29,292 bases of DNA from Bifidobacterium breve. Lineage in GTDB: Bacteria; Actinomycetota; Actinomycetes; UBA12327. Numbering within the stretch: the first letter of the stretch is position 1; the number at the start of each line of letters is the position of its first letter. The notes under the pieces were generated by a model. The model saw only the letters and a list, made by a program, of their open reading frames with translations. It ran no database searches and was not told the origin of the DNA. Positions 4 to 19,748 of this stretch are shown piece by piece. The DNA is taken from positions 1-29,292 of the forward strand of contig CAMCVY010000001.1 in NCBI GenBank assembly GCA_945881995.1. The letters run 5' to 3'. A program made the translations under genes and the position numbers.

Positions 4-978
4 ATGACCGCGGTGAGTGATCGCAGTAATACCGCCAGCGAGCCCAGCGAATGGCAAAAGAAGATCGCAGGGGAATGGCATGGTCGTCCCGGTCTGTTTG
101 ATCCTGAGGGCAACCACGTGGGGTACGAGCGCATTGCGCGCGCCAGTGAGGTATTGCCTGACGGCACCACGGTCTACTGGATGAATGGCACCTTGGACGG
201 TTCTGGGCCGCTGCGCAACCGTTTCCAACTCGGCGCAGACTTCCGCTTTGAAGTCATCGACTCGGATGAGAACCGCGTGTACATGGGTCCCGACTTTTAT
301 GGCACGGGTCAGCCCTATGGCTTGTTCGTTGATGCGCACTACTACTCACCCGGATGGCAAGCAGACCTTCGTACGTGGAACCAAGTCCTGCCGGACGGTA
401 AGACGCAGGTCTACTCATCGGTCTTGCACGACGGTTGGAGCGTGTGCGCGGTATTCAACGGCTTGTACAAGGTTGTCGACGTCGGCGCGAATGACCAAGA
501 GACCCAAGGCTTTATTGATTCGTGGATCAGGGACGAAACAGATCGTGCTCCGCGCCCACATGTCTTGCCTACCAAGCAAAGAGGTGCCTGGACGGGGACT
601 CTTGAGGTGTATGACGCCGCTTCGCAAGAAAAGGTGGGCGACAACTTCGTCACTATTGACCATGAGCCCTTGTCGCTCGTACGTACCAAGCAGACGATCA
701 CCTGGGAAGGTGCGATCAACCGCAAGTACACCTTCGAGCGCTTGCGCCGAGATCAAAACACGACCTATGACGGCCCGGACATCATGGGAAATGCCCGCAA
801 CTACGGACGTGCCTTATTCACGAGTCAACACTTCACCGGTGGCGATGTGTGGAAGATTAAGGGACGCGAGTACCTGCTTGACGACTCGCAGTCTTTGAGC
901 ATTGTGTGGGAAGCATTTAAGGGCGACATGCTCACTAACGTTATTTTCGGACAGCTGGATTGGAAGGCACAAGCATGA
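4..978 (+). CDS. Hypothetical protein with two tandem calycin/lipocalin-like beta-barrel repeats (DUF3598-like)
   Basis: 324-aa ORF. ATG directly follows a TAG at 1-3, suggesting an upstream gene outside the window. The stop overlaps the next start (ATGA). Internal duplication: AGEWHG...YMGPDFYGTGQPYG vs RGAWTG...YDGPDIMGNARNYG. The N-terminal GxW motif is typical of calycins. The fold call is inference. Confidence 0.75.
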   Translation: MTAVSDRSNTASEPSEWQKKIAGEWHGRPGLFDPEGNHVGYERIARASEVLPDGTTVYWMNGTLDGSGPLRNRFQLGADFRFEVIDSDENRVYMGPDFYGTGQPYGLFVDAHYYSPGWQADLRTWNQVLPDGKTQVYSSVLHDGWSVCAVFNGLYKVVDVGANDQETQGFIDSWIRDETDRAPRPHVLPTKQRGAWTGTLEVYDAASQEKVGDNFVTIDHEPLSLVRTKQTITWEGAINRKYTFERLRRDQNTTYDGPDIMGNARNYGRALFTSQHFTGGDVWKIKGREYLLDDSQSLSIVWEAFKGDMLTNVIFGQLDWKAQA

Positions 979-1808
979 GCGAGAACCGTTCCGTCGTCGT
1001 CACTGGTGGAACCCGTGGCATTGGCCAAGGGCTAGTGCGCGAGTTCATCAAGGCCGGTTGCCGAGTCACGTTCACTGGATCCAGTGAAGCATCCACCGCC
1101 AAGGGCCTGGAGGCTCTGGGTGGAGCAAGCGCCAACCTGACTGCTGTCGCATGCGACATCACCGACCGCGAGCAAGTCCAGGCAGCATGGGATCACGCTG
1201 TTGCCACGTTCGGTCGTGTAGACATCTGGATTAACAACGCGGGTATTTCGTTGCCACGCAAGCCTTTCCAGGACCACGCGGTTGCGGACTTGCAGGGCAT
1301 CGTCGACACCAACATCGTGGGAATCTTCAACGGTGACGCGGTGGCGATGAAGGGCATGCTGGCCCAGGGCTCTGGTTACATCTGGAATATGGAGGGCTTC
1401 GGTTCGAACGGTCAGACTAGTTCAGGCCTGGGTCCTTATGGCGCGACTAAGCGTGCGCTGAACTACCTGACCAAGGTACTGATCAAGGAACTTAAGGGAA
1501 CCGGTGTCGGCATGGGTTACCTCAGCCCCGGCATTGTCGCCACTGACTTGTTGATCCAAGACTACGAAGACGACATGGAACAGTGGGAAAAGGTCAAGAA
1601 GACCTTCAACATCCTGGGCGACACCGTCGAGACGGTTACGCCTTACCTTGTTGATGGCGTCTTGAAGACCGAGAAGAGTGGAAAGCGCGTGGCATGGCTG
1701 ACGCCGGCAAAGGCCGGTGGCCGGTTCGCTACTGCGGGCTTCAAAAAGCGCAATCTCTTTGACCAGATTGACCCGCGCAAGACCATGGATCAGCAGGACG
1801 CTTCGTAG
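975..1808 (+). CDS. Short-chain dehydrogenase/reductase, chlorophyll b reductase NOL/NYC1-like subgroup
   Basis: TGGTRGIG cofactor motif, NNAG, catalytic YGATK. IWNMEGFGSNG, LSPGIVATDLL and FNILGDTVETVTPYLV resemble NOL-type SDRs as I recall them. Start set at ATG 975 (ATGA overlap) rather than the ORF-track 960. Confidence 0.9.
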   Translation: MSENRSVVVTGGTRGIGQGLVREFIKAGCRVTFTGSSEASTAKGLEALGGASANLTAVACDITDREQVQAAWDHAVATFGRVDIWINNAGISLPRKPFQDHAVADLQGIVDTNIVGIFNGDAVAMKGMLAQGSGYIWNMEGFGSNGQTSSGLGPYGATKRALNYLTKVLIKELKGTGVGMGYLSPGIVATDLLIQDYEDDMEQWEKVKKTFNILGDTVETVTPYLVDGVLKTEKSGKRVAWLTPAKAGGRFATAGFKKRNLFDQIDPRKTMDQQDAS

Positions 1809-2509
1809 TGGCCTTGACTGACTGCGTTACCTATCCATTGGTCTTAGCGGCCGAAGATATCGTTCCCATTGTTTTAGCTGGTGTGGGTTATTGGTACCTG
1901 TCCAAGCGGGTACTCAACGACTTTGAAGGGTCGCCAGCTGTTGCATTAGCCATGCGGATCGCCGCCGGGCTCTTGGTCGTTTGTTCGTTCTTGGCCGGAC
2001 CGGTGCGAAAGATCCTTGCTAACGTGGCCGCAGTACCCATTTGCGCGCCGGATTTCGAAGTTCCTTATTCGCAATTCCAGATTCCCTTTGTGAGCGCGCT
2101 AGCCCCAGGGTTTGCGATCTTGACCTGGGGTGTGATCTGCACACTCAAGGGCCGCAAGGTCGCCTTTTGGCCGGCGAGTGTGTTGCTCGCGCTCGGTGTG
2201 GTGGGTGCAGTCGCCGTGGGTGAGCGAACCATCTTGTTCGCAGTAGGTGGTCTGTGGGCCACAGCCCTGGCTGTTTCGGCCGGAATCCTTGCTTCTCGCC
2301 AACGTGATTTTGTGACAACGGGACTCTTTGCCCTCTACGCCTTGGGTACTTTGGCCCTACCGCCCATCAGTTCCAAAGGGAATGTTTCTGATGTAAATGT
2401 TCAGTGGTTGGCGCAAGGGATTAATTCGGTTACACAAGGCCTGTTTCTCTACGCCTGCTATCGACTGTTTTCACGTTACCAACGCCAGTCCACTACTACC
2501 GCTGCCTAG
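1808..2509 (+). CDS. Hypothetical integral membrane protein (~6-7 TM)
   Basis: 233 aa with alternating hydrophobic segments. GTG start overlaps the SDR stop (TAGTG). No catalytic motif recognised. Confidence 0.75.
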   Translation: MALTDCVTYPLVLAAEDIVPIVLAGVGYWYLSKRVLNDFEGSPAVALAMRIAAGLLVVCSFLAGPVRKILANVAAVPICAPDFEVPYSQFQIPFVSALAPGFAILTWGVICTLKGRKVAFWPASVLLALGVVGAVAVGERTILFAVGGLWATALAVSAGILASRQRDFVTTGLFALYALGTLALPPISSKGNVSDVNVQWLAQGINSVTQGLFLYACYRLFSRYQRQSTTTAA

Positions 2510-2520
2510 GGAGAACTCAC

Positions 2521-3267
2521 ATGGGTGATCAACTCGCTTTCCGCAAGAAGTTTGGTGTCTTGGCACCGAGTACGAACTCCATCGTCGAACCGGACTTCAA
2601 TCGCATGGGTGTTCCCGGTGTTACGCCGTTGTTTAGCCGCATTCACATCTATGACCAAGACCTCTCGACCGAGGCCCAGATGGAAAAGTTGCGCGTACAG
2701 CTCGATGAGTCCTTGGACTACGCCATTGATCTCGTCTGCACCGCCGAAGTTGACTACATGGTCATGGGGATGTCGGCTGAAACCTTCTGGGGTGGCGTTG
2801 CGGGCAACGACTACTTCAAGGCACGCGTCAAAGAACGTTCGGGCGGGCTTGAAGTCGCCACGGGTGCTGAAGGGTGTCAAAAGGTCCTCAACAGTTACAA
2901 CGTGAAGTCCATCTCTGTTGTCACGCCGTATCAAGAAAACGGAGACCGGGAGGTCATTAATTACTTTGAGGAGATTGGCTTTGAGGTGAAGAAGTTGATC
3001 GGCCTCAAGCGTCCAACCGCGGTTTCCATTGCGCACACCACGGAGGACGAACTTCGCGATGCCCTCATTGAACTCAACGAGAGCGGCGCTGAGGCGATCG
3101 TCCAGGTGGGCACGAACTTGTCTATGGTCCGCCTAGCCGCTGAGGCTGAGCGCTGGTTCCACAAGCCCGTTGTGGCGATTAATGCTGCGACCTGGTGGAT
3201 GGCCCTTCGAGAGAATGGCATCAACGACAAGCTTTACGGCTTTGGCCGCATGTTTGAGGACTTCTAA
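2521..3267 (+). CDS. Maleate isomerase / arylmalonate decarboxylase (Asp/Glu racemase superfamily) protein lacking the catalytic cysteines
   Basis: FGVLAPSTNSIVEPDF, ISVVTPY, VQVGTNL and KPVVAINAATWW motifs. RBS GGAGA upstream of the ATG. Confidence 0.88.
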   Translation: MGDQLAFRKKFGVLAPSTNSIVEPDFNRMGVPGVTPLFSRIHIYDQDLSTEAQMEKLRVQLDESLDYAIDLVCTAEVDYMVMGMSAETFWGGVAGNDYFKARVKERSGGLEVATGAEGCQKVLNSYNVKSISVVTPYQENGDREVINYFEEIGFEVKKLIGLKRPTAVSIAHTTEDELRDALIELNESGAEAIVQVGTNLSMVRLAAEAERWFHKPVVAINAATWWMALRENGINDKLYGFGRMFEDF

Positions 3268-3273
3268 TCGCTC

Positions 3274-4695
3274 TTAGTTAGTCAACAAAGGGGTGTCAAC
3301 GGGTGCAACCCGGTAGCACCCCTTTGTTGTGCGGTCCTTCAGTGTGCAGGTGTCGTCCCACGTGATCTGACGTAGTGCTGTCGCACCGGCGTATTGGCCT
3401 TGATTCCAGCTGGACCCGTAAGCAACAGCGGAACTGTAGGTAGTTCCCAACGACCACATGGCGTCTTTGAATGCATTGGGAGTCACGTTCTTAGGGGCCT
3501 TATCGAGGGCCGCCTTGAGCAAGAGAGTGGCATCGCAGAACTGCAAAATGATGCGGTAGTTTTCGCGGTTTCCTTCAGGCGGGTTAGCGCCAGCCGCATC
3601 AACAATTTGCTTGCACACACCTTCATTCGGTCGAGCCGGATCCGGGAATGGGAGGGTCGAGGAGTCGCTCCGGTTATCTGATGAGGGAGAGAATCCAAGC
3701 CCAAGCATCCCAATACGACTTTTCCCAACGATGGTTTCGGGGTTGTCGACGAAGAACGCAGGGTTGTCGTATGAGGAGATGGTGTACTTCGCTGTTAGTT
3801 CCTCAGCTTCAGTCGAGGACAAAGCCACTGCCTCAATGCGTTCGCCCCCAAGAGCGATCACTCGGTCTAAGCCCTGGTTTTTTGCACCGGCAAGGGCCGC
3901 TGAGGAGGTGGCACCGAGGGTGCCAATGTTGGAGACGTCAATAAAGAAGTTTGCGGACTTTGTTACGCCAATGCTCTGGAGATAAGGGGTCACGATCGTG
4001 TCGATGGCTCGTCGTGAGACGGCCGCATCGGGGGCAATGACGGCCACTCCTTGTGCGCCATCAAACCAACCGGCTGCCTTCAGATTCGGCAGTAGCGTCT
4101 TGACGTAGGAGTCGAATGGCGGAAGCGACGTGGACCACAGGTAGGGGCTGTAGGCCTGATACTCCTGCTGATCAAGGGGGAGATACGTCTGGTCCAACAT
4201 GATCGCCCGTGCAGATTGATAGCACGGGCGAGCGTTGTTTTGGAATTGGCCATCCATGGCGATGGCAAAGATTTCCGCATCCTGAGTGAAGGCTCGGCAC
4301 TGAGCTTCCGCGTATTCGGGGCTGTCAAGTTGTCCCGTGTAGGGCTTGATAATCGGGTTGAGCTTGCGCCCGCCGGCCCCACCATTGGTATTCACGTAAT
4401 TGACAACCGCCTGGATACCTTTGGTGGTGACATCAAAGCCGCCGTCTTCGACATTTTTAAAGCCTAAATTTTTGGCGATTTCGCCGATGTCAACGACCAG
4501 ATATCCAACATTGACCGTGTCAGCCGAAACACCAGGCGATGGTTGATCCGCAGGACCGCCAGCGGCGCTCGCGTCGCCGCCACTTCCGGCGGCACCGCTA
4601 CTGCTGTTGTTGGAACTACTACATCCCGCAACAAGGGCAGCGCAGGCCAACAAAGCGATGAGTGATCGAGCGATGGTCAAACGTGACGATTGCAC
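3274..4695 (-). CDS. ABC transporter substrate-binding lipoprotein (LivJ/K-like type I periplasmic binding fold), paralog 1
   Basis: Lipobox LVAGC, Ser/Gly linker, PGVSADTVNVG and VNTNGGAGGRKL motifs. RBS GGAGG before GTG 4695. Confidence 0.88.
   Translation of the reverse strand: MQSSRLTIARSLIALLACAALVAGCSSSNNSSSGAAGSGGDASAAGGPADQPSPGVSADTVNVGYLVVDIGEIAKNLGFKNVEDGGFDVTTKGIQAVVNYVNTNGGAGGRKLNPIIKPYTGQLDSPEYAEAQCRAFTQDAEIFAIAMDGQFQNNARPCYQSARAIMLDQTYLPLDQQEYQAYSPYLWSTSLPPFDSYVKTLLPNLKAAGWFDGAQGVAVIAPDAAVSRRAIDTIVTPYLQSIGVTKSANFFIDVSNIGTLGATSSAALAGAKNQGLDRVIALGGERIEAVALSSTEAEELTAKYTISSYDNPAFFVDNPETIVGKSRIGMLGLGFSPSSDNRSDSSTLPFPDPARPNEGVCKQIVDAAGANPPEGNRENYRIILQFCDATLLLKAALDKAPKNVTPNAFKDAMWSLGTTYSSAVAYGSSWNQGQYAGATALRQITWDDTCTLKDRTTKGCYRVAPVDTPLLTN
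3283..3329 (+). terminator. Long hairpin, probable terminator of the plus-strand operon, embedded in the 3' coding end of the convergent SBP gene
   Basis: Perfect 13-bp inverted repeat CAACAAAGGGGTG (3283-3295) / CACCCCTTTGTTG (3317-3329), with inner stem CGGGT-GCA-ACCCG, starting 16 nt after stop 3267. Confidence 0.6.
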
Positions 4696-4716: not shown

Positions 4717-7569
4717 TTACGACACTGTGGCGGTAAATGGACCCGATCTTTCAACTGCGGTCATATCTGCGCCCAAGTACGAGCGCACCACATCGGGGTG
4801 ATTTCGCACGGCATCGGGGGAACCTTCGGCGATGACCGCTCCAAGCTCCATGGCGACCACGCGCTGGGCTAGACGAAAGAGCAGGGGTAGGTCGTGTTCA
4901 ACCACCACCAGGGTGGTTCCCAGATCGCGGTTGACTCCAGTCAGGAGTTGAACCAAACTCTCGCCCTCAGATTGAGCAATTCCACCGGCAGGTTCGTCCA
5001 GCAAGAGAACTTGCGGATCCAGCGCCAGCATGCAGGTGATTTCCACCATGCGACGAGTTCCGGTAGAGAGCTCACCCACGGGCTTGGCTTGCAAATAATC
5101 AAGCCCCATCACTTCCAGGTATTGCATGGCGCGCGCCTTCTTGGCGCGATCAGCCATGGGCAAGCCCAGCAGCGAGCTGGTGACTCCGGTAGGAGCGGTG
5201 CGCTCCATGGCAACCATCACGGTTTCCAGAACGCTCATCGTTGGGTACAACCGAGCGGCTTGGAACGAACGTACGAGACCGAGTTTGGCCCGCGCCTCCG
5301 GCGACAGCTTGGTGATGTCGCGACCGTTGAACACGATGGAACCACTGTCAGGAGCGGTGAAGCCTGCAATAATTTCAAACAACGTGGTTTTGCCGGCGCC
5401 ATTCGGTCCGATGATTCCCAAGATCTCACCAGGCTGGACGGCCAAGTCCACGCCGGCAACGGCCTTGATGCCTCCGAATGAACGCGCTGCGCCCGTGACT
5501 TGAAGGATCGGCGGCAACGCCTGTGGATCAATTCCGACAAACGGGTCGCGGCCAGAGTTTTGCTTCAGTGGCGTCACGTCGATCACGGCTATGCGACGAT
5601 CCTCACCATCGATTTCACCTTCATCAAAGCGAATAGCTGCTTGTGGATCTACACCTTGCAGCCGGGCCAGACCAAAGGCTGCGGAATTGCGCACGCGAAC
5701 GAGGACTCCACCCAGACCGCGCGGAATCAGAACAATGATGATGACGGAGAGCAGGATTAACAAGGGTGGGATGAATGCATTCAGTGTCACTAATTGTGGG
5801 ATGCGGCTGTAGAGCGCACCGATCGCTGGTCCGGGAAGGACACCCAAGCCTCCCAGCACGCTCTGTGAAACCACATCAACGCTGAAGCCACCCTTGAAGT
5901 AATCGGGCGTCAGGGTCGTGACCGAGTTAGCGATGATGACGCCGCCAAGTCCAGCAATTCCACCCGCAATCGCAAAGGTTTGAAGTTTGCGGTACGGCGC
6001 AGCGATCGTGAATGCTCTCGCTGCGTCCTCATTGTCACGCAGTGCACGAAGGACTCGACCCAAACCGGTACGACGGATGTTGGCCGCTATCAAGAAAGCA
6101 ATCACGAGGAACACCAAAGAGAATAGGTAGTAGTTCTTCGGCAAACCGAAGTTGATGTTGAGACCTGAAATTTGCAGTGGGTTAACGCGAATTCCAGAGG
6201 CGGTGGGGCCGATGAGAATCTCTTGGCGCAGCAACCACGATGAGGTAGCAAACGAGAAGGCAAGGGTGCTCACAGCTAGGGCAAGCCCGCGCAGTCGAAG
6301 GGCGGGAATTCCGACCAACGCCGAGACGATGGCGCCAACAACTACACCAGCCAGTAGCCCAAGAAAGAATTGTCCTGTCGCGGCTGACACCTTGACGGCA
6401 ACGGTGCCCGCGATGGCGGCAAAGGCGAATTGACCCAAGGAGAGTTGACCAGCAACTCCGGTTAGCACGCCTACGGACAAGCCCACGATGGTGAAGCCAA
6501 CGGCGAACGTCAAAATCGTGGCCGTCTTATTGGTTACGGTCAGGCCGATATACACCGCAAAGGCCAAAGCGATGACCGAGATGAGCGGAGTAATCAGGCG
6601 AACAGTGAAGAGCCGGCGAATTTGGGTGGGCAACTGGGGTGGATACAACTTGTTCCATTCACCGCGGTCTTCGTCACGACGCGAAGAAAGTTTTGGCTGG
6701 AGGAGCAAACCAGCAAAGACCACGATGACCAAGGCAAGTTGGGGCAAGCCGGGCAAGTTTTGATTGCTGGCCAAGACCTGGGCCGCGACTCCAATCCCAA
6801 CTGACGAGAAGAAGGCGATGGGCAAACTTTGGAAGCGGCCAAGGACAGCGCCCGCTAGCGGCAGTACCAGAAGCGATGGGCCGAGGAAATCCTTGTCTGG
6901 CAAGTTGATCGTCGGGTAGACCAAGATCACAGAGAACGCCGCGATAGCACCAGCGATTCCCCAGGACAAGGTGACCATGCGGCTTGCCGACACTCCAGCC
7001 AAGGAAGCCGCATCGGGGTTATCCGCAGCCGCTCGAATTGCTAGTCCGTAACGCGATCGGCGAAGGAACAGTGTCAGCGCGAGCAGAACGAATGGGGCGA
7101 GCAAAACGATGGCGACAAAAGAGGGTTGGATGGTCGTCGCGCCTAGTTTCAGGCCAGTGAGGAACTCCGGTAGCGCTGGCTTGGGGAACAAGCGACCGGA
7201 TGCGTTGCTTTGGTTAATCACCAAGCCAAAAATGATCAGGAATTGGGCTAGACCCAGAGTGACAACGGTTCCAAGCACGCGGGGGGCGTCTGAAATTCGG
7301 CGCACAAATCCCCATTCGACACCGGCGGCGATGAGCGCTCCGGCCAAGATGCCGACCGGGAACATCAGCCAGTAGGGCAGTCCCTGTTTAGCAACGATGG
7401 CACCGAAGATGGAAGCGGCGAAAATTCCGATAGCCACGTGGGCGAAGTTGATGAACCGGCTAGCGCGGTACACCAGTACGAGTCCGATAGACAAGAGCCC
7501 GTAGAGGAACCCCGTGAAGAGTCCACTCAAAATGTTGGGGAACGAAAGGTCGAATCCACCGAGGTTCAT
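4717..7569 (-). CDS. Fused branched-chain-amino-acid-type ABC permease-permease-ATPase (LivH-LivM-LivG)
   Basis: LivH motifs (GLVLVYRASRFINFAH, YGLAIRAAADNPDAASLAGV). LivM motifs (GQLSLGQFAF, LRLRGLALAVSTL, RALRDNEDAA). ATPase motifs GPNGAGKT, LSTGTRR, LLLDEP, VEHD. Confidence 0.93.
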   Translation of the reverse strand: MNLGGFDLSFPNILSGLFTGFLYGLLSIGLVLVYRASRFINFAHVAIGIFAASIFGAIVAKQGLPYWLMFPVGILAGALIAAGVEWGFVRRISDAPRVLGTVVTLGLAQFLIIFGLVINQSNASGRLFPKPALPEFLTGLKLGATTIQPSFVAIVLLAPFVLLALTLFLRRSRYGLAIRAAADNPDAASLAGVSASRMVTLSWGIAGAIAAFSVILVYPTINLPDKDFLGPSLLVLPLAGAVLGRFQSLPIAFFSSVGIGVAAQVLASNQNLPGLPQLALVIVVFAGLLLQPKLSSRRDEDRGEWNKLYPPQLPTQIRRLFTVRLITPLISVIALAFAVYIGLTVTNKTATILTFAVGFTIVGLSVGVLTGVAGQLSLGQFAFAAIAGTVAVKVSAATGQFFLGLLAGVVVGAIVSALVGIPALRLRGLALAVSTLAFSFATSSWLLRQEILIGPTASGIRVNPLQISGLNINFGLPKNYYLFSLVFLVIAFLIAANIRRTGLGRVLRALRDNEDAARAFTIAAPYRKLQTFAIAGGIAGLGGVIIANSVTTLTPDYFKGGFSVDVVSQSVLGGLGVLPGPAIGALYSRIPQLVTLNAFIPPLLILLSVIIIVLIPRGLGGVLVRVRNSAAFGLARLQGVDPQAAIRFDEGEIDGEDRRIAVIDVTPLKQNSGRDPFVGIDPQALPPILQVTGAARSFGGIKAVAGVDLAVQPGEILGIIGPNGAGKTTLFEIIAGFTAPDSGSIVFNGRDITKLSPEARAKLGLVRSFQAARLYPTMSVLETVMVAMERTAPTGVTSSLLGLPMADRAKKARAMQYLEVMGLDYLQAKPVGELSTGTRRMVEITCMLALDPQVLLLDEPAGGIAQSEGESLVQLLTGVNRDLGTTLVVVEHDLPLLFRLAQRVVAMELGAVIAEGSPDAVRNHPDVVRSYLGADMTAVERSGPFTATVS

Positions 7570-9791
7570 GCGGGGCTCCCAGACTCATCAAGGGTGACGG
7601 GATTGGCGTCGGCGGTAGTTGGATGGCCACCCAGGCTCAAGGCTTGCACGAGTTCCGGCTGGGCGAGGAGGTCCTTGGCGTTTCCTTCGTAGACGATCTC
7701 GCCCTTTTCCATGAAGTAACAGCGGTCCACCAAGTTGAGGGCGACGTTGACTGATTGCTCAACAACCAGGACGGCAGTGCCTCGTGCGTTGAGTTGACGC
7801 ACCATTTCCAAAAGCTCGCCCACCACAATGGGGGCCAGTCCGAGGGAAAACTCATCAACAACCAAGACTTTCGGCTTGGTTATCAGCGCCTTGGACAGAC
7901 CGAGCATCTGTTGCTCGCCACCACTGAGGGTCGAGCCCAATTGATTGCGACGGTCGGCAATCTTGGGAAAGACTTGGAAGGCTTCGTCGATGCCTTCTTT
8001 AATGCTGGCTCGATCGCGCCCCAAACTAAAGCCGTACATCAGGAGGTTTTCGTAGACCGTCATCGAGCCGAACACTGCGTTGCCACCCACAATTTGGGAC
8101 AAGCCAAGGGCCACTCGCTTGCTGGCGTTAATGTCCGTGACGTTGTCACCGGCAAGGCGAACGACTCCAGCTTGGGGGGATTCCAATCCGGAAAGTACTC
8201 GAAGCAAGGTGGTCTTACCCACTCCGTTAGGGCCAAGGAGCGCAACCATCTCGCCTTCGTTAACCCGCATGGATACATCAAAGAGAACCTGCACAGATCC
8301 GTAGGCGAAATCAATGTTGCGGGCCGAAAGTACGGGAACCGCGCCGGATTCAGCTACGGCTTCATCAAAGTCTTGAGTTTCATCTTCGACGCCAAGACGA
8401 GCATCAAGGTCAGGCCCCACGGCACGAATGAGCTTCTTGGACCGACGCCAAAACAAAATCATCGGCAAACTTGCTACAGTGAAGGCGACTGCGTAGGCAG
8501 CGCTGCCACCGATGATCGCACTCACGGCGCTGATCACCAGAAGTGCAAGGAGTGAACCGCCGATCGTTGAAAACAGAGATATTCCTACTGCCGTGGGCCG
8601 GTCCTCGGGCTGAATAACCGAGAGCATCGTGATGTCGAGAGCAACCCAGGCGAGGAATCCACCGATCGTTGCCAAGGCGAGTTGCGGCGAGATAACAGGG
8701 CGTACGAGTCCGATCAGTAACAGTCCGGCAAACCCGATTATCAGGCCAACGGGGATGACGGCTGCTAGTGCTTCAGGTGAGCGGCGAACAGACTTTTCTA
8801 AGCCACGCGCTACGAGGTAGAGCGTAAGGAATGCAACAGCGCTGGCGATGGTGATGACGAGCGCTGCGGTGCCCTCTTTGAGTTCGCGTGCTTGCGCAAG
8901 ACGAATGACGGGAACGATCAAAGCTGCCCCTGCACACCAGCCAACGGCCACGTAAGAGGTGAGGGCAAATTTTACGGTCGGGATTGATCGCACGCGCAGC
9001 GTGGATTCGGACCACGAGGGGCGCAAGCCGGCGACGGGATCATCAACTTGACCCATAGCGCGACGCAGACGATCTGGTTCTGCTCCGCCTACCTTTGTCT
9101 CGGTCAGGAGCAACGAGCCCAAGGACAGGACGACTGCCAAGATTCCGGAGAGGAGCAGTGCCTGGCTAGCGCCAATATCGATGCCAGCAATCGCGATCCA
9201 AGCGCACGCACCACCTAATGCGCTCCCGATCAGGGTGCCCATGTGCGTGCGGGCAATGGCTCGGGCGCGGGCTTCAGGCACGGTCGAGTCGAAGGCCAGA
9301 GTGCGCCAGATAGGAGCGCCGAGTCCAAATAAAACGCCACGAGCCAGCGCCACCAACAGGAACCAGCCAAATGCCGGGATGAGGTTCATTAATAGCGCAA
9401 AGACGGCTGAGTTCACCGCGAAGATCACGGAGGCCGCGGTACGACGATTGAAGGGAACGCGGTCGCTAAGCGGCGCACCGACAAGTCCGGCCAAGATGGC
9501 CGCTGCGATGACAGTTCCGCCCACGGTGGTGGTGGTCCAGTTGTTATCGCGTGCGATTTCAGGGGAAAGTAAGAGCAAGGTAGTCAGAGGGAGCGCGACC
9601 GAAGCATTGATGAGAGAGAGCCCGAGAACTCGTCGTCGCGCGCTAGTAGGTACCGCAACTTTCCACTTGGGGATGGTGATGTCCCCGCTAATACCCACGG
9701 CAGTCCGCGCCGCGTCACGTACCGACGCTTCCAGGGTTGGAACCTCGTCTACCCCAACATCTGTTGGGCTAGTTGGTAGCGAACGGGACAT
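7566..9791 (-). CDS. MFS-like membrane domain fused to LivF-type ABC ATPase
   Basis: N-terminal ~440 aa multi-TM region with motif-A-like GAPLSDRVPFNRR. C-terminal GPNGVGKT, LSGGEQQM, VVDEFSLGLAP, VEQ. Start uncertain (ATG 9791 with GAGG upstream, or GTG 9797). Stop overlaps the next start (ATGA). Confidence 0.88.
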   Translation of the reverse strand: MSRSLPTSPTDVGVDEVPTLEASVRDAARTAVGISGDITIPKWKVAVPTSARRRVLGLSLINASVALPLTTLLLLSPEIARDNNWTTTTVGGTVIAAAILAGLVGAPLSDRVPFNRRTAASVIFAVNSAVFALLMNLIPAFGWFLLVALARGVLFGLGAPIWRTLAFDSTVPEARARAIARTHMGTLIGSALGGACAWIAIAGIDIGASQALLLSGILAVVLSLGSLLLTETKVGGAEPDRLRRAMGQVDDPVAGLRPSWSESTLRVRSIPTVKFALTSYVAVGWCAGAALIVPVIRLAQARELKEGTAALVITIASAVAFLTLYLVARGLEKSVRRSPEALAAVIPVGLIIGFAGLLLIGLVRPVISPQLALATIGGFLAWVALDITMLSVIQPEDRPTAVGISLFSTIGGSLLALLVISAVSAIIGGSAAYAVAFTVASLPMILFWRRSKKLIRAVGPDLDARLGVEDETQDFDEAVAESGAVPVLSARNIDFAYGSVQVLFDVSMRVNEGEMVALLGPNGVGKTTLLRVLSGLESPQAGVVRLAGDNVTDINASKRVALGLSQIVGGNAVFGSMTVYENLLMYGFSLGRDRASIKEGIDEAFQVFPKIADRRNQLGSTLSGGEQQMLGLSKALITKPKVLVVDEFSLGLAPIVVGELLEMVRQLNARGTAVLVVEQSVNVALNLVDRCYFMEKGEIVYEGNAKDLLAQPELVQALSLGGHPTTADANPVTLDESGSPA

Positions 9792-11208
9792 TCCCACCTC
9801 GGTATAAGAAGCACCCGGGCTTGCCGGATACGGGGTTTAGGCAGGTCGTTGATTCGTAAACAAGGACTCGACCAGTGTTGCTAGCCGCGTACTGCCCGTT
9901 ACCGATTGACCCGCCGAACGTAACAGCAGAACTGTATCCGTTCCCGACCTGCCATGCCGCATCGCGGAAGGCGTTAGCCGTGAGGTCCTTCGGGGCCTTG
10001 TCGATGACGGCCTTGAGGAACAAGTTGGCATCGCAGTACTGCAAGCCTTCCTTGTAATTGGGGCGCACACCGTCGGGCGGGGTAGCTCCGGCTGAATCGA
10101 TAATTTGCTTGCAGAGCCCCTGATTGGGGGTGGCCGGGTCTGGGAACGGAATAGCTGGATCTAGGCGGATGTCACCAGCAGGCAAGACGCCAAAGCCGAT
10201 CATGCCGGTCAGTGTGGTGTCGACGATGGTCGCCGGGTTGTCTTGTAAGAACAGCGGACTGTCATAGGAGGAAATCGCAAACTTTGCCTTCGACGTAGTG
10301 GCTTCTTGGCTGGACAACATGATGGGCAAGATCCGCGCACCACCAACGACGATGACGCGGTCCAGGCCGGAGTTAGCTGCACCCGTGAGCGCGGCAGATG
10401 AACCAGCGCCAAGGGTTCCTATATTGGCGGTATCAACAAAGAAGTTTTCAGACTTGGTGATGCCGTTGGCAGCGAAGAAGGGCTGCACGACCTCCGTGAT
10501 GTTGCGTCGAGCAATTTCGTTGTCCACTCCAACAACGGCAACGCCCGCTGAGCCGTTGAACCACCCCTGGTCCTTGAGCGCGTTCAATTCCGTACGCAGG
10601 TAGGCGCCATATTCAGGCCAGCTAGGCGACCATAGGTAGGGGGAAAACTTCTCGAATTCCTTTTGATCTTGGGCGAAAAGGGACTCATCCAACATGATCG
10701 TCTTGCGTGCGAAATAGCACGGGCGCGCGTTGTTTTGGAACTGTCCTTCAAGGACAACCGCGAAAACTTGATCATCCTGGGTGAAAGCGTTGCAAAACGA
10801 TTCAGCGTATTCGGGGTTGTCAAGACCGCCGCCGTACTTCTTAATGATGGGGACGATCTTGCGTCCATTGAGGCCACCGTTGGCATTGACTGCATTAACG
10901 GAGGCTTGAATTTGCTTGATCACTCCATCGGCGCCACCGTAGTTCGCGGTCTTGAAGCCTAAGGATTCTTGGAGTTCGCCCAAGTCAGGGACGATGTAGC
11001 CGATTTTGATCGAGTCCGCGGTTACACCAGGGGACGCATCATCTGCACCTGCTGCCGCGCCCGATCCCGAGCTTCCTGATCCGGCAGGAGAGTCAGCCTC
11101 CGACCCGCATCCAGCCGAGAGCGTGGCGATGAGTGCCAGGGCGGCCAGAGCAGCGACCGCTCGAGTCCAGCTACCGCGAGAAGTCACGACTGAGGATGCC
11201 GGAGACAT
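9769..11208 (-). CDS. ABC transporter substrate-binding lipoprotein, paralog 2
   Basis: Lipobox LSAGC and PGVTADSIKIG. Collinear with 3274-4695 over its whole length (shared GQFQNNARPCY, NIGTLGA, PFPDPA). Confidence 0.88.
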   Translation of the reverse strand: MSPASSVVTSRGSWTRAVAALAALALIATLSAGCGSEADSPAGSGSSGSGAAAGADDASPGVTADSIKIGYIVPDLGELQESLGFKTANYGGADGVIKQIQASVNAVNANGGLNGRKIVPIIKKYGGGLDNPEYAESFCNAFTQDDQVFAVVLEGQFQNNARPCYFARKTIMLDESLFAQDQKEFEKFSPYLWSPSWPEYGAYLRTELNALKDQGWFNGSAGVAVVGVDNEIARRNITEVVQPFFAANGITKSENFFVDTANIGTLGAGSSAALTGAANSGLDRVIVVGGARILPIMLSSQEATTSKAKFAISSYDSPLFLQDNPATIVDTTLTGMIGFGVLPAGDIRLDPAIPFPDPATPNQGLCKQIIDSAGATPPDGVRPNYKEGLQYCDANLFLKAVIDKAPKDLTANAFRDAAWQVGNGYSSAVTFGGSIGNGQYAASNTGRVLVYESTTCLNPVSGKPGCFLYRGGNVPFATN

Positions 11209-11576: not shown

Positions 11577-12593
11577 GTGACGCGTGGTTCAGTTTTGCGA
11601 TTGACATCTTCAATTGCTGCAGTTGCGTTTGTCACTACAGGTTTGTTACCGATGGCACAAGCGGCTGACAACGGAGCATGGTCTGCGGCCCCCACGAAGC
11701 AAGGCACATTTACCGCTCGCCAATATTTCTTTCTCGAATTATCTCCCGGTGCCACGGTTAAAGATTCGGTAACCGTGAAGAATGCTGGCCAAGTCGCGCA
11801 GGTACTCGATCTTTATCCAGCTGATGCATTCAACGTGGAAAGCGGCGCAGGCTTTGCGCTGCGCAAGCGAGGCGATAAGAACACTGACGTCGGTTCCTGG
11901 ATCACTCTGGATAAAACACGCGTTGAGGTTCCCCCGGGTGGAAGCGTGAGTGTTCCGTTTACCCTCACGGTCCCTAAGGGTGTGACGCCCGGCGACCATG
12001 CCGGTGGTGTGGTCACGATTGAGCCGGCTCCAGCCCCCAGTGGTGATAACAGCCAGATTCAAATCCAGCGAGCGTTGGGCGTACGCACCTATGTGCGTAT
12101 TGCTGGCCCCCTGACACCTGCTCTATCCATCACCAAGGTGGACCTTAAGGTGCGCCCCGCCCGGCTTCCATTTATTGGTCAGCAAGGTGGCGCCACGGTC
12201 ACCTATTCGGTGCGCAACAGCGGCAACGTTCGATTGACGGCGGATCGCATCATCACACTTGATGGACTATTCGGTCGAACTTTGCGCAACACCGGGCGAG
12301 GCCCGATTCCTGAAATCCTGCCCGGGTCAACGGTTGTTCTCACCGAGAGTTTCACCAAGATGCCGGTGCTCAATCAAGTGACAGCAAATGTGCGCTTGAT
12401 TGCAGCGGACGGCAAGGTCGATACGTCGGGATCAGCTACTGCGCTTGCTGTGTCATGGGTCTTCTTGTTCTTGTTGCTGCTAATTATTGTGGGCATTGTG
12501 TTGGCGGTCTTGTGGTCACGACGTGAATCAAACTTGGTGAGCCAGATGGCCGCCGATGCGGGTCCGTTGTCACCCACAGGAGACCAACTGTGA
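11577..12593 (+). CDS. DUF916 / WxL-interacting-protein-like surface protein with C-terminal TM anchor
   Basis: Signal peptide ending AQA. RQYFFLELSPGATVKDSVTVKN, LDLYPADAFN, DVGSWITL, VPFTLTVP..PGDHAGGVV and VRNSGNVRL motifs. Hydrophobic C-terminal helix followed by SRR. Confidence 0.82.
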   Translation: MTRGSVLRLTSSIAAVAFVTTGLLPMAQAADNGAWSAAPTKQGTFTARQYFFLELSPGATVKDSVTVKNAGQVAQVLDLYPADAFNVESGAGFALRKRGDKNTDVGSWITLDKTRVEVPPGGSVSVPFTLTVPKGVTPGDHAGGVVTIEPAPAPSGDNSQIQIQRALGVRTYVRIAGPLTPALSITKVDLKVRPARLPFIGQQGGATVTYSVRNSGNVRLTADRIITLDGLFGRTLRNTGRGPIPEILPGSTVVLTESFTKMPVLNQVTANVRLIAADGKVDTSGSATALAVSWVFLFLLLLIIVGIVLAVLWSRRESNLVSQMAADAGPLSPTGDQL

Positions 12594-13885
12594 ACCGTCG
12601 CACCACAGCAGTCGCAGGATCGCTGGCCGCCGGGTTCGTTGCCTTGATGCTGGCCGGGCTGTCGACGGTGGCCCAGGCCGCCGATCCAATTCCCGGTGCG
12701 GGCACCACGGTGGGAACTGTTACTGATCCAGCAAATCCTTTCGCCCAACCAGGTCCGACCGGTCGTACAGCTACTGTCTCCCCACCTATCGCGAAGATCG
12801 GCGATTCGGTCATTGTGACCGGATCTGCTTGGCCAGCAGGCTCCTTGGTCTCTGTCGCGGTGTGTGGCAATAACTATCTGAATGGTTCTTCTGATTGCGA
12901 ACCCACTGGTCAGGGCCAGACCAGCGCAAATGCAAACGGTGAGATTGCCGTTCAGGTTGCACTGCCGGCCTTGCCTCCATCACCGTGTCCTTGTGTTGTT
13001 CACCTTGCGACGCTGGCGGACACCAACACGGTGGACGTTCCGTTCACCATCACGGGTGCACCCACTGCAGTTCCATCGCAGACGGTTAACCGTCGTTCGG
13101 TCGATGTGTCGGCACGCCTTACCGGCAGTGGCCCATTTGCCGCTTACCTCGGTGGAGCAGCAAAGCGTGAACTTGTCGTCTCTGTAACAAATACTGGCTC
13201 GTCGAACTTGATTAATCCTGCCCTGAACCTGACAGTGGGCCGCGGTGAAAATCCCGCTACCCCGCTCACCAGCCCCAACGGTCAACAACCGGCGTTAGGA
13301 ACGATTGCGCCGGGCCAGACGGTGGAGTATCGCCAAAGCGTCACTCTCGGCCCGCCGGCTTTTGGCCAGTACCGGGTCAAGGGCGAGTTCATTGGTCTGG
13401 ACTTGATCACTGTTGATCAACAAAACGTGAACGCGGGAGTTCTTAGTTTCTCTGTCGCGACCTCTAGTTACCCCTGGCTCTTGATTTTGATTGCGTGGCT
13501 CTTGCTACAGATTCCGCTCTTAGGTCTGTACAAGCGCCGCCCAGTGGAGAAACCGTTGAGTGAAGACCCACTCATTGAGCAACTTCCCGTTGCCTCGGGT
13601 GCTCCAGGCTTTGGTGTGAGCGCGTTTGATCCCACACCTGCCATGGCAGGTGCCCCGGTAGCGCTGGCTGCTGCAGTGGCTCGACCAGTGGTTGACACTC
13701 CCGCTCCGCCGCCGCCACCCGGTTACCGAGCCATTCAGCCAGCTTCTGCCACACCTCCGCCAGCGCCGTTGCCACCGATGCCAGCGGCACCAGGCGAAGC
13801 GCCAAGTGCGGTTCCTGCACCTTCCACGCCGGCTCCCGCGGGTGTGGAAGCTCTGCGTGCGTTGTTGCAGCCACCCGCGCAGTAA
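12590..13885 (+). CDS. Membrane-anchored protein with neocarzinostatin-apoprotein-like domain, Ig-like domain and Pro-rich tail
   Basis: Signal peptide ending AQA. ATVSP..GDSVIVTGSAWPAGSLVSVAVC...DCEP...ANANG...CPCVV follows the chromoprotein apoprotein pattern. TM WLLILIAWLLLQIPLLGLY followed by KRR. GTGA overlap with the upstream gene. Confidence 0.75.
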   Translation: MNRRTTAVAGSLAAGFVALMLAGLSTVAQAADPIPGAGTTVGTVTDPANPFAQPGPTGRTATVSPPIAKIGDSVIVTGSAWPAGSLVSVAVCGNNYLNGSSDCEPTGQGQTSANANGEIAVQVALPALPPSPCPCVVHLATLADTNTVDVPFTITGAPTAVPSQTVNRRSVDVSARLTGSGPFAAYLGGAAKRELVVSVTNTGSSNLINPALNLTVGRGENPATPLTSPNGQQPALGTIAPGQTVEYRQSVTLGPPAFGQYRVKGEFIGLDLITVDQQNVNAGVLSFSVATSSYPWLLILIAWLLLQIPLLGLYKRRPVEKPLSEDPLIEQLPVASGAPGFGVSAFDPTPAMAGAPVALAAAVARPVVDTPAPPPPPGYRAIQPASATPPPAPLPPMPAAPGEAPSAVPAPSTPAPAGVEALRALLQPPAQ

Positions 13886-13889
13886 CGCG

Positions 13890-14588
13890 CTAGACGCTCT
13901 GCAGCAGGAGTTCCGCAACGTTTGTTGCGTTAGTTAGCGCACTGTCATGCGGTCCAACCATGACCTCGTAAGGAAGACCACTTTCGTCCAGTCGAATCCG
14001 CGTGAGTTGACACGGAAATGTAGGGGGAGTGTCAGAGAAAAACACGTAGCGGGCCGCAACGTCATTCGCGGCAGGATTTTCCAACATGACGGGTTCGAGT
14101 GACGGACCAAGTGGTGTGGGAACGAGGCGGGTGTTCACAAAGTCCGCGAGGGATGGATCAAGGAAACCTTGTTCGGTGCCTACGGGCCTGGCTGGGATGC
14201 TCATGGCCGGGTCCAGGTTCTCTGGTGGCGCCGGCGAGCCGGGCGGATTGAGGTCCACACCTCGCTCCCCATTGCGCGGCACTACCGCATCAAGATACAC
14301 AACGGCCGAGACTTTCTCTGCACGCACCTCAAGAACACATCGGCACACCAAGCCAGCCTGACTATGCGCGACGAGGATCACTGATTCGTCCTGTGCGTCA
14401 ATGGCCGCGACCACGTCCGCAACCCACTCGCCGAGCCCAATTGCGGTACCGACTCGGTCTGAGTGTGGTTCGCAACCAGTCAACGTCGGGGCAATGACCG
14501 TGTGGCCGGCTGATGTAAGTAAAGGCGCCAACTGATCCCACGCCCAACCACCACGAAATGCACCATGGACTAAGACGAAAGTCGCCAT
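13890..14588 (-). CDS. Alpha/beta hydrolase, methylesterase/salicylate-esterase-like
   Basis: FVLVHGAFRGGWAW, nucleophile elbow AHSQAG, VYLDA, C-terminal GPHD (catalytic His). Confidence 0.9.
   Translation of the reverse strand: MATFVLVHGAFRGGWAWDQLAPLLTSAGHTVIAPTLTGCEPHSDRVGTAIGLGEWVADVVAAIDAQDESVILVAHSQAGLVCRCVLEVRAEKVSAVVYLDAVVPRNGERGVDLNPPGSPAPPENLDPAMSIPARPVGTEQGFLDPSLADFVNTRLVPTPLGPSLEPVMLENPAANDVAARYVFFSDTPPTFPCQLTRIRLDESGLPYEVMVGPHDSALTNATNVAELLLQSV
13914..13935 (+). terminator. Possible terminator inside the 3' end of the convergent hydrolase gene
   Basis: CGCAAC-GTTT-GTTGCG followed by TTAGTT, ~30 nt after stop 13885. The stem is short. Confidence 0.3.
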
Positions 14589-14927
14589 TTAGTTCAGCGC
14601 ATCCGCAACGTCGTTGCTGGGCCCAGTGTCAAGTACCACGTCAACGAATTCACGAGGGTAGGACTCGTAGGGCTTCATGTGTTCGTACATCTTTTCCGTG
14701 TAAGCCACATACCCTTCGCGCTGCGTGCATTCGAGGTAAGAGTCAACCTTGTCGAAAAAGCGCATGTTCATAAAGTGGGTGCGATCTTCTTGGCCGCGTA
14801 CGAGCACTCGACGAATAAAGCCAGGGTGGTCGTCAAAGAATTGTGCGAAGCCTTCAGAGAAATTGATGTACGCGTCCGCGTGCTCCTCAGCGTCGATAGT
14901 CCACGCATGCGAGATCACAATAACCAT
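14589..14927 (-). CDS. Antibiotic biosynthesis monooxygenase (ABM/Dabb-fold) family protein
   Basis: 112 aa with HPGFIRRVLVRG..D...F pattern. Stop directly abuts the hydrolase ATG (TAAATG). Confidence 0.75.
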   Translation of the reverse strand: MVIVISHAWTIDAEEHADAYINFSEGFAQFFDDHPGFIRRVLVRGQEDRTHFMNMRFFDKVDSYLECTQREGYVAYTEKMYEHMKPYESYPREFVDVVLDTGPSNDVADALN

Positions 14928-14934
14928 GCAATGG

Positions 14935-14940
14935 ATAGTA
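14935..14940 (-). promoter_or_regulatory. -10 element implying a leaderless ABM-hydrolase mRNA
   Basis: Minus-strand TACTAT lies 7 nt upstream of ATG 14927. No Shine-Dalgarno sequence is present. Confidence 0.5.
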
Positions 14941-14964
14941 CGCGAGTAAATCGTTGGCGGGAGG

Positions 14965-16263
14965 TTATGCCAACGTGATGGTCATGATGGCGGTGTAGCG
15001 GTCGGCCGACTGGAAGGCGGGAACGGTCAAAGTCAGGGCTGAGGTGACGTTGTACACCCCGCCAGTTGTTCCGGTGGTGAGGTTTTCATCGGTGTTCTTC
15101 GTGCACAGACTTACCGTGCCCGAGAAGCTCTGGGCGCTGCTTCCGGCCGATTGACCAGGAGCGACCAAACTGGAATCAAAGCCGGAAATGGCGGTCTTGC
15201 TCGACGCGGAGTAATCCCATGCGGTGCCGTTGGTGGCCGCGGCACAACCAGGAGTTGCCGCCAAGGTGGATTTAGCCATGGACTTTCCGGTTGCGCTCGT
15301 GAAGTTAGTCAAAGTAGCCGTGAGTGACCAGCCGTAGCTACCACCGCGTGTGTCAGAAACGGTGATGTCGTTCAGTGTTCCGCTGATTGGCGCGGGAGCA
15401 AGCGGAGAGGTAATGGTTCCCAGGTTGACACTGGTCGCATTGCTATTCGCGTTTGATGTTCCCAGCACCGGTGTGGTCGTTCCCGATCCATCCGCGGACC
15501 CACTGGTTGACGTGGTGTTGGTGTAGGTGCGCTGAGTGAGTTGGCCCTGGAGCACGCTCAATCGAACGATTTGATCGGTAGTGCACCCGGCCCCACCGGT
15601 GGTGTCACCCGTCTGTGCGATGCAGTTGCTGCTGGGTGAAGCCGGCACGACACCGGCAATCGTGGTGCGTGCTCCGTAAGCGGTTGATGTTTGTGGGGTG
15701 CAGGCGACTTGCGCTCCCACCAAGTTGGCGTCATCTGCGGCCACGAAGGTGTACTTAAACAACGCGGGTACAAATTCGAGCTTGTCACCAGCAACAAATG
15801 TGGTGGGCGCTCCAGTTCCCGTTGTGGTTGGCACACTGATGGTTACCGGGATGGGTGCGCTGACCGAGCCGCCGATGGAGATCGTTGTGGAGGAACCAGT
15901 GGCTCCGGTACCAGTCGCGTTGAACAGGGCTGAGCCACTTTGTTTGCGAATATCAATGGTGGGTTCGGCACGAACTTGTGCACCGGTGATCGCAAACGGC
16001 AAACTGGCATTCACGCTGGGGAAGTCGTAGGTCACTGAGATCGCTGATCCTGCGTCGGACATTTCCGGCGCGGTCATGGTGACTGAGTAATTAGTGATAC
16101 CCAAGTCGTAGGAAGCGGCCAGTGATGGTGCGTTAAAAGCGCAGACGAACGGCACCGAAATAGTGGCCGCTCCAGCCTGCTGTGCAGAACTAATGCTGAG
16201 TCCTGTGGCTGCAAGGAGGCCTACAAGGGCTGCGGCGATTCGGCGAGATAGGGAGCGCTTCAT
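14965..16263 (-). CDS. Secreted protein with C-terminal WxL-like domain
   Basis: Signal peptide ending AGA. ITVSDTRGGSYGWSLTATLTNF and terminal LTLTVPAFQSADRYTAIMTITLA match the WxL pattern (D-x-R-G...GW-x-L; L-x-VP...Y...LTWTL), with WTL replaced by ITL. Confidence 0.78.
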   Translation of the reverse strand: MKRSLSRRIAAALVGLLAATGLSISSAQQAGAATISVPFVCAFNAPSLAASYDLGITNYSVTMTAPEMSDAGSAISVTYDFPSVNASLPFAITGAQVRAEPTIDIRKQSGSALFNATGTGATGSSTTISIGGSVSAPIPVTISVPTTTGTGAPTTFVAGDKLEFVPALFKYTFVAADDANLVGAQVACTPQTSTAYGARTTIAGVVPASPSSNCIAQTGDTTGGAGCTTDQIVRLSVLQGQLTQRTYTNTTSTSGSADGSGTTTPVLGTSNANSNATSVNLGTITSPLAPAPISGTLNDITVSDTRGGSYGWSLTATLTNFTSATGKSMAKSTLAATPGCAAATNGTAWDYSASSKTAISGFDSSLVAPGQSAGSSAQSFSGTVSLCTKNTDENLTTGTTGGVYNVTSALTLTVPAFQSADRYTAIMTITLA

Positions 16264-19666: not shown

Positions 19667-19748
19667 GTAAGCCCTACACACGACGAATCCCCTGTGTTGA
19701 AGTTGGAGGTAATAGTTATTCGCTTCTAATGCATTGAGGGATCTTGAC

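Follow-up and report, generated by a model that had tools for sequence, protein, structure and literature searches.

The stretch of DNA analysed here, referred to throughout as the window, comprises 29,292 nucleotides of contig CAMCVY010000001.1 from the 1.44-Mb genome of a freshwater actinobacterium. Its minus strand holds four densely packed operon genes (Table 1) whose products have the domain content of a binding-protein-dependent ATP-binding cassette (ABC) importer of the HAAT family, and in which the LivF-type ATPase is fused in one frame to a 12-helix domain of the major facilitator superfamily (MFS). The genes follow the order substrate-binding protein (SBP), MFS-LivF, LivH-LivM-LivG and a second SBP. 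The end of the first SBP gene overlaps the start of the MFS-LivF gene by 23 nucleotides, the next junction is a 4-nucleotide ATGA start/stop overlap, and a 21-nucleotide gap bearing a GGAGG separates the LivH-LivM-LivG gene from the second SBP gene. The MFS-LivF open frame spans positions 9797-7566, with a GTG at 9797 as its 5' limit, and its start is likely the ATG at 9791, with GAGGTG directly 5' of it, in agreement with the limits of 7566 and 9791 assigned to the gene in a preliminary description of the window. Both SBPs carry lipoboxes and match Peripla_BP_6 below its cut-off of 31.7 bits (26.7 bits for SBP 1 and 29.2 bits for SBP 2), and the neighbours of SBP 1 in a protein atlas are Peripla_BP_6 clusters of Actinomycetota; no relative of the SBP was found by sequence in the PDB. 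In one metatranscriptome, three contigs of 151 nucleotides, a small share, lie on the MFS-LivF gene, a hint that the gene is transcribed.

Table 1. Features of the importer operon and its surroundings, in window coordinates.
Feature	Position	Strand	Basis or remark
SBP lipoprotein 1 (479 aa), operon gene 1	9769..11208	-	lipobox LSAGC; weak Peripla_BP_6
MFS-LivF fusion gene (741 aa from ATG)	7566..9791	-	Pfam, NCBIfam
Conserved, family-specific N-terminal segment, predicted cytoplasmic, residues 26-47, consensus A.R.A.G..GD...P.W	9657..9722	-	alignment
12-helix MFS-fold domain, residues 51-467	8397..9647	-	AlphaFold model, Foldseek, motifs
Flexible linker, residues 468-488 (~20 residues)	8334..8396	-	low pLDDT; inserts in relatives
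LivF-type ATP-binding cassette, residues 489-724	7626..8333	-	Pfam, NCBIfam, motifs; closest solved chain 1ji0
LivH-LivM-LivG triple fusion (950 aa)	4717..7569	-	Pfam, NCBIfam
LivH part of triple fusion	~6691-7548	-	
LivM part of triple fusion	~5710-6606	-	
LivG part of triple fusion	~4750-5511	-	
SBP lipoprotein 2 (473 aa), 52% identical to SBP 1	3274..4695	-	GGAGG 7 nt before GTG
Divergent neighbours: calycin-like 324-aa protein, SDR, 233-aa protein, Amdase-family protein	4..3267	+	Pfam, synteny
Upstream neighbours: WxLIP-like and neocarzinostatin-like surface proteins, alpha/beta hydrolase, ABM-like protein, WxL protein	11577..16263		Pfam, synteny

The C-terminal part of the fusion protein bears the features of an intact LivF-type ATPase. 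The Pfam domain ABC_tran matches residues 506-649 with 94.7 bits, the top NCBIfam model for residues 489-724 is LivF, and the Walker A motif, the LSGGEQQ signature, the Walker B residues D648-E649 and the LivF-typical E680-Q681 are invariant among 14 aligned family members. The partner protein, described beforehand as a fusion of LivG to LivH and LivM, indeed contains two BPD_transp_2 domains (PF02653; 181.7 bits over two stretches), an ABC_tran domain and, on LivG, a BCA_ABC_TP_C tail (PF12399). The two permease domains and the two distinct ATPases expected of a HAAT importer, one of LivG type and one of LivF type, are therefore all present. Equivalence to the LivF and LivG of Escherichia coli, as judged by the NCBIfam equivalog cut-offs, fails for both ATPases, with 190 bits against a cut-off of 441 for LivF and 212 bits against 362 for the LivG part, for which LivG is again the top model. 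By these scores the ATPases are relatives of the LivF/LivG family and not equivalogs, and because the scores lie so far under the cut-offs, a specificity for branched-chain amino acids should not be assumed. A comparison of LivH-LivM with solved structures by sequence found no relative. The complete importer would consist of the two lipoprotein SBPs, LivH-LivM-LivG and MFS-LivF, and ATP hydrolysis by the LivF/LivG pair would, by virtue of family membership, drive import through LivH-LivM.

The N-terminal part of the fusion protein is predicted to adopt the MFS fold, in keeping with the MFS-like domain of the preliminary description. MFS_1 (PF07690) matches residues 61-416 with 53.8 bits, above its cut-off of 33.4, and an AlphaFold model of this part alone (predicted local distance difference test (pLDDT) score 85.6; predicted template modelling (pTM) score 0.88) displays 12 long helices, arranged in two six-helix halves, along with a helical central loop. 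A Foldseek search of the PDB with this model returned 466 matches at E<=1e-3, and the 50 matches listed, which include Spns2, SV2A, VGLUT2, DgoT and FLVCR2, are all 12-helix MFS transporters (template modelling score (TM-score) 0.65-0.77; 12-21% identity); no NCBIfam MFS subfamily matched the domain. An arginine-rich stretch, SARRRV, precedes the first transmembrane helix (TM1), which would put the N-terminus on the cytoplasmic side, and the ATPase with it. The strongest conservation falls in two loops, TM4-5 with the motif D..PEAR.R (here PEARAR) and TM10-11 with the motif LD...P.DR (here PEDRP). Both motifs are generic to the MFS and align with their equivalents in an ordinary MFS protein of the same genome. 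Specific to the family are two cytoplasmic blocks, the N-terminal segment of Table 1 and a GG.E..R motif in the central loop (residues 237-243). An arginine of TM4, R153, is kept in 12 of the 14 family members, and the best-conserved helices within the family are, by a slight margin, the central TM1, TM7 and TM10.

The joining of these two domains in a single frame is genuine and not an artefact of assembly. The preliminary description had pointed to a stop or frameshift between the domains as the mark of a false join, and none was seen: over positions 7400-9900, contigs assembled from three DNA runs, each from a different study, carry substitutions and zero indels, and one of them is gap-free across 7714-9900 and so crosses the junction at 8334-8396. 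Another five genomes of the family have the same open frame, 730-766 residues long, and it is also found in metagenome-assembled genomes (MAGs) from lakes at different sites, one of them labelled acAMD-2, with 96-98% identity. A relative of 71% identity (P0007) is represented by 13 contigs that share the gene order. Together with the low ratio of nonsynonymous to synonymous substitution rates (dN/dS) described below, these observations make it vanishingly improbable that two genes were joined by a sequencing or binning error or that the frame is a pseudogene, and nothing was found that speaks for either.

The distribution of the fusion was followed through its MFS part. A phmmer search of 1.84 billion representative proteins (E<=1e-3) gave 17 matches, eleven of them of 700-920 residues, including the cluster of the query itself and P0012, and both MFS_1 and ABC_tran were present in all eight that were scanned of these eleven. 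The best of the shorter matches may be fragments from contig ends, and the weakest, P0139, is an ordinary MFS protein. A profile of the MFS domain found matches at 1e-8 in 40 of the 401 genomes sampled from the class (about 10%), mostly in frames of 700-1100 residues, and 17 of 400 other genomes across the phylum at 1e-15; within the order to which the genome belongs, which counts only 8 genomes, there were matches in 7. AlphaFold DB also holds full-length look-alikes under uninformative names, and fusions of LivH, LivM and LivG are frequent among cultured genera, for example Micromonospora, Nocardioides, Mumia and Dactylosporangium. The MFS-LivF fusion, delimited here as a divergent MFS domain followed by LivF in one frame beside a LivH-LivM-LivG gene, is thus widespread in Actinomycetota, other classes of the phylum included, and uncharacterised. 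The occurrence of similar fusions in other actinobacteria had been anticipated in the preliminary description, as had the lack of a characterised example; full-text literature searches, outside subscription journals and TCDB, found no paper on an MFS-ABC or MFS-LivF fusion.

Longer arrangements of the same parts were encountered at two other loci. One of these (L013, 6279-13427) holds a stop-free frame of 2383 codons with MFS, LivF, LivH, LivM and LivG in that order and a spacer of approximately 180 residues after LivF, and may represent the entire transporter as a single chain. The other (L030, 4533-8822, genome G015) has a frame of 1430 codons, uninterrupted by stops, that spans an SBP, the MFS domain and LivF and may encode one protein or same-frame overlapping genes.

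The linker between the two domains bears on how they could cooperate. In a model of the full-length fusion (pLDDT 81; pTM 0.64), linker residues 471-484 have pLDDT values below 50, and the fall in pTM from 0.88 for the MFS part alone indicates no confident docking between the domains. In the alignment of the family the linker is about 20 residues long at its shortest and exceeds 100 at its longest, with proline-rich inserts of up to about 100 residues in the relatives P0125 and P0126. Long proline-rich linker inserts are seen in some members, and one, P0127, also has a repetitive proline-rich tail of approximately 170 residues beyond the ATPase; these extra stretches occupy alignment columns 515-625 and 880-1045. 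The linker of the window protein is without an in-frame ATG, GTG or TTG, and a separate LivF can thus not arise from an internal start. It follows from this architecture that the MFS module would be tied to the importer by way of the LivF/LivG dimer, as proposed beforehand. A complex prediction of the MFS domain with LivH and LivM scored 0.00, a result that counts neither for nor against contact.

A linker that is disordered and variable in length argues against mechanical coupling of the module to ATP. It is thus very unlikely that the LivF/LivG cycle mechanically drives the rocker switch of the MFS domain, making a primary/secondary hybrid pump, an arrangement for which only the covalent linkage and the conservation of the cytoplasmic loops speak. 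The coupling groove of LivF would, by analogy with the family, be required for LivH or LivM, and the module is absent from working orthologues. The domain might instead act as a transceptor or regulator, whose ligand occupancy or conformation is relayed to LivF as an on/off switch for the ATPase, which would make it a membrane-side counterpart of the regulatory domains that MalK, MetN and ModC carry at their C-termini. Such a role would suit the concentration of conservation on the cytoplasmic face, which includes residues 26-47, the central-loop GG.E..R and L464-D465 next to the ATPase, and dispensability, evident for this module, is often a property of regulators. It is nonetheless unlikely, as a disordered linker of about 20 to more than 100 residues is a poor transmitter of conformational change and the modelled domains lack confident docking. 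Any mechanistic link between the module and the ATPase cycle, whether dimerisation of the nucleotide-binding domains (NBDs) gates the rocker switch or MFS occupancy gates ATP hydrolysis, is likewise considered improbable. Were it true, the complex would be a genuine primary/secondary hybrid with coordinated pathways, for example with nutrient import coupled to product release. Coupled import and export, or else an MFS that senses or regulates, had been put forward as possible functions in the preliminary description.

Orthologous systems exist in which the MFS module is degraded or missing. The orthologous operon of Nocardioides (CP061768), set in the same neighbourhood, encodes a plain LivF of 251 residues, with an NBD 57% identical to that of the window and the same 23-nucleotide overlap with the SBP gene, and a profile search of the whole 4.2-Mb genome found no such MFS domain. 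A neighbouring Nocardioides protein of 703 residues was considered as a split-off MFS and rejected. The Micromonospora orthologue is a LivF of 697 residues whose N-terminal part has no Pfam match and has lost the PEARAR region; it aligns weakly with the family profile (hhalign probability 89%) and, from these features, is a decayed form of the MFS part. In a tree of the NBDs, the plain forms of Nocardioides and Dactylosporangium and the decayed form of Micromonospora constitute one clade (support 92/98) amid MFS-fused branches, with the backbone of the tree an unresolved polytomy. Solely because the decayed and plain forms group together, loss is favoured over gain, and the grouping suggests, short of proof, that the module decayed and was lost. 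Short LivF relatives of 240-450 residues were rejected as further plain forms; most lie on contigs just 1-3 kb long, and the final helices of the MFS domain are recognisable at their N-termini, which marks them as fragments. P0268, at a locus with fragmented gene calls, was likewise not used as evidence.

The genome of the window itself offers a different kind of substitution. A second HAAT system, located on another contig (L024, contig C50, 1308-8981), includes two SBP-like lipoproteins, a 912-residue LivH-LivM-LivG protein and a DUF4118-like membrane protein encoded between the SBP genes. Its LivF, of 431 residues, has an NBD 51% identical to that of the MFS-LivF protein and, instead of the MFS domain, an unrelated N-terminal membrane domain of four helices, for which hhalign found no relation to the MFS profile. 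LivF forms of this size recur in other genomes. Since Nocardioides lacks the module, Micromonospora has a decayed one and this paralogue bears the four-helix domain in its place, the module is taken to be dispensable for importers of this type. The system is thus, with high probability, a binding-protein-dependent HAAT importer whose LivF bears a dispensable add-on membrane module that stands outside the import engine, the 12-helix unit being attached to LivF through a short flexible linker.

Within the lineage of the window, selection maintains this add-on. In comparisons with four close species of the same genus, the MFS part has a dN/dS of 0.03-0.055 and the NBD one of 0.023-0.09, and these low values indicate a module that is maintained and not decaying. 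Identities between the window domains and the orthologous system of each relative (P0007, P0012 and Micromonospora, respectively) are 63%, 36% and 26% for the MFS part, 86%, 64% and 53% for LivH, and 88%, 54% and 46% for LivM; over longer distances the MFS part therefore diverges faster than the permease domains.

A second type of fusion, MFS-LivF-LivG of approximately 1020 residues (P0013-P0015), lies beside a LivH-LivM gene and a gene for an AMP-binding protein of the CoA-ligase type. At two loci of this type (L004 and L005, 5011-13841) the order is the AMP-binding gene, LivH-LivM (730 residues), MFS-LivF-LivG (1024 residues) and then a protein of 589 residues. No specific kinship between the MFS parts of the two fusion types was detected by BLASTP, which returned nothing, or by hhalign, which scored no better than against a generic MFS protein.

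What the add-on does is answered here with a tentative preference, held at somewhat less than even confidence, for a working MFS unit that would use its own energy, presumably the proton gradient, to carry a solute of the same pathway. Such a carrier might move the substrate by an additional path of lower affinity, or let out substrate or product present in excess, and the benefit of the fusion would lie in 1:1 co-assembly and co-localisation and not in mechanical coupling to ATP. This role is proposed because the module keeps its fold in full along with the generic loop motifs of the MFS, and remains under strong constraint; because plain LivF functions elsewhere, so that a mere anchor would be unneeded; and, by analogy, because the separate MFS-LivF-LivG type employs a canonical, symporter-like MFS beside the CoA-ligase-type gene.

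Several observations weigh against a carrier. Motif A of the MFS, G-x-x-x-D-R/K-x-G-R-R/K in the TM2-TM3 loop, is normally the best-conserved motif of the superfamily. The motif-A-like GAPLSDRVPFNRR singled out in the preliminary description does sit in the cytoplasmic TM2-TM3 loop, the position expected of motif A, where this protein reads LSDRVPFNRR, but only P109 and R119 are kept at >=80% across the family, so the placement stands while motif A is not conserved across the family. The cavity helices as a group are conserved no better than the lipid-facing helices, the search of 1.84 billion representatives turned up no stand-alone relatives of the clade, and the rapid divergence relative to LivH and LivM described above belongs here also. 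That an unrelated four-helix domain takes this place in the paralogue suggests a generic role for a membrane domain.

A scaffold without transport activity would explain these points nearly as well. An MFS fold of this kind, resembling the TMD0 of other ABC proteins, would serve as a membrane tether or interaction hub that holds LivF, the sole free subunit, beside LivH-LivM-LivG and thereby stabilises or tunes the complex, a possibility regarded as credible though clearly short of probable, with odds of around one in its favour to two against for tether and for stabilising role alike. Besides the divergence, the degenerate motif A, the unexceptional cavity helices and the paralogue, it would account for the loss or decay of the domain in orthologues whose remaining system is intact, and for the finding that every checked member of the clade long enough to include an ATPase has one; the two conserved elements specific to the family, at the N-terminus and in the central loop, could be the sign of a docking surface. 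A tether, however, needs neither 12 helices nor generic MFS loop motifs, nor purifying selection of the strength seen in the ATPase. Nocardioides and Dactylosporangium manage with a plain LivF, so an anchor is not required, and an ordinary carrier-type MFS has been fused to LivF in a separate clade.

The setting of the operon is conserved well beyond this genome. A survey with hidden Markov models built from the window proteins found the importer neighbourhood (window 4-3267 and 11577-17084) across distant Actinomycetes, at loci L001, L003, L012, L013, L026, L027, L029 and L030. The importer is flanked by surface proteins (WxL-type, WxLIP-like and neocarzinostatin-like) on one side and by an Amdase-family protein, the 233-residue protein, the SDR and the calycin-like protein on the other; frequent further members are an ABM-like protein and an alpha/beta hydrolase. 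Synteny of the plus-strand set (4..3267) was seen at L001, L003, L026, L027, L029 and L030. No relatives of the 233-residue and 324-residue neighbour proteins were found by sequence in the PDB. Importer and neighbourhood together look like one undescribed uptake or processing pathway, and the neighbouring enzymes give a hint of a hydrophobic or aromatic carboxylate as the putative substrate class. Elsewhere in the window, the plus strand holds an open reading frame of 2038 residues (19734-25850).

ABC transporters, driven by ATP, and MFS transporters, driven by gradients, are the two largest transporter classes and are treated in textbooks as separate machines. Here a whole family, found in approximately one tenth of the sampled Actinomycetes genomes, would combine both in one complex. 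New findings here are the plain and decayed states of LivF in the same neighbourhood, the four-helix paralogue and an MFS domain that evolves faster than LivH and LivM yet under strong purifying selection. Orthologues with an intact, a decayed or an absent MFS module are natural controls that make the role of the module directly testable. A structure of the compact two-chain importer would give a first view of a HAAT system, since no HAAT permease matched solved structures by sequence, and the conserved neighbourhood, with its WxL-type surface complex and enzymes, points to an actinobacterial uptake pathway that has yet to be described.

By domain content the core of the system is a member of the HAAT family (TC 3.A.1.4), which includes LivJ/LivK-LivHMGF of E. 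coli, UrtABCDE and BraDEFG, and the MFS addition is an uncharacterised variant of it. Shared with the family are the two BPD_transp_2 domains, the LivG-type ATPase with its BCA_ABC_TP_C tail, the LivF-type ATPase, in which VEQ replaces the H-loop histidine as is typical of the family, and putative type I binding proteins, whereas here LivH, LivM and LivG form one chain, LivF bears a 12-helix MFS domain, the two lipoprotein SBPs are large and divergent (473-479 residues), and scores lie far under the equivalog cut-offs. With canonical MFS carriers such as Spns2, DgoT, VGLUT2, FLVCR2 and SV2A the domain shares its predicted fold and the TM4-5 and TM10-11 motifs, but its identity to them is low, motif A is not conserved, and no confirmed stand-alone protein was found. 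The MFS-LivF-LivG type likewise presents an N-terminal MFS on an actinobacterial HAAT LivF cassette, with LivF parts 47-50% identical to the one described here; it differs in that its MFS is of the canonical organic-anion or aromatic-acid symporter type, as judged by NCBIfam matches, in the placement of LivG after LivF and in its neighbourhood. The nearest functional analogy, and an analogy only, is perhaps TMD0 of the ABCC transporters and TAP, likewise an extra N-terminal membrane domain that varies between paralogues, diverges fast and is dispensable for core transport. TMD0 is a bundle of 4-5 helices on the permease of exporters, whereas the module described here would be a complete MFS fold carried on the ATPase of an importer.

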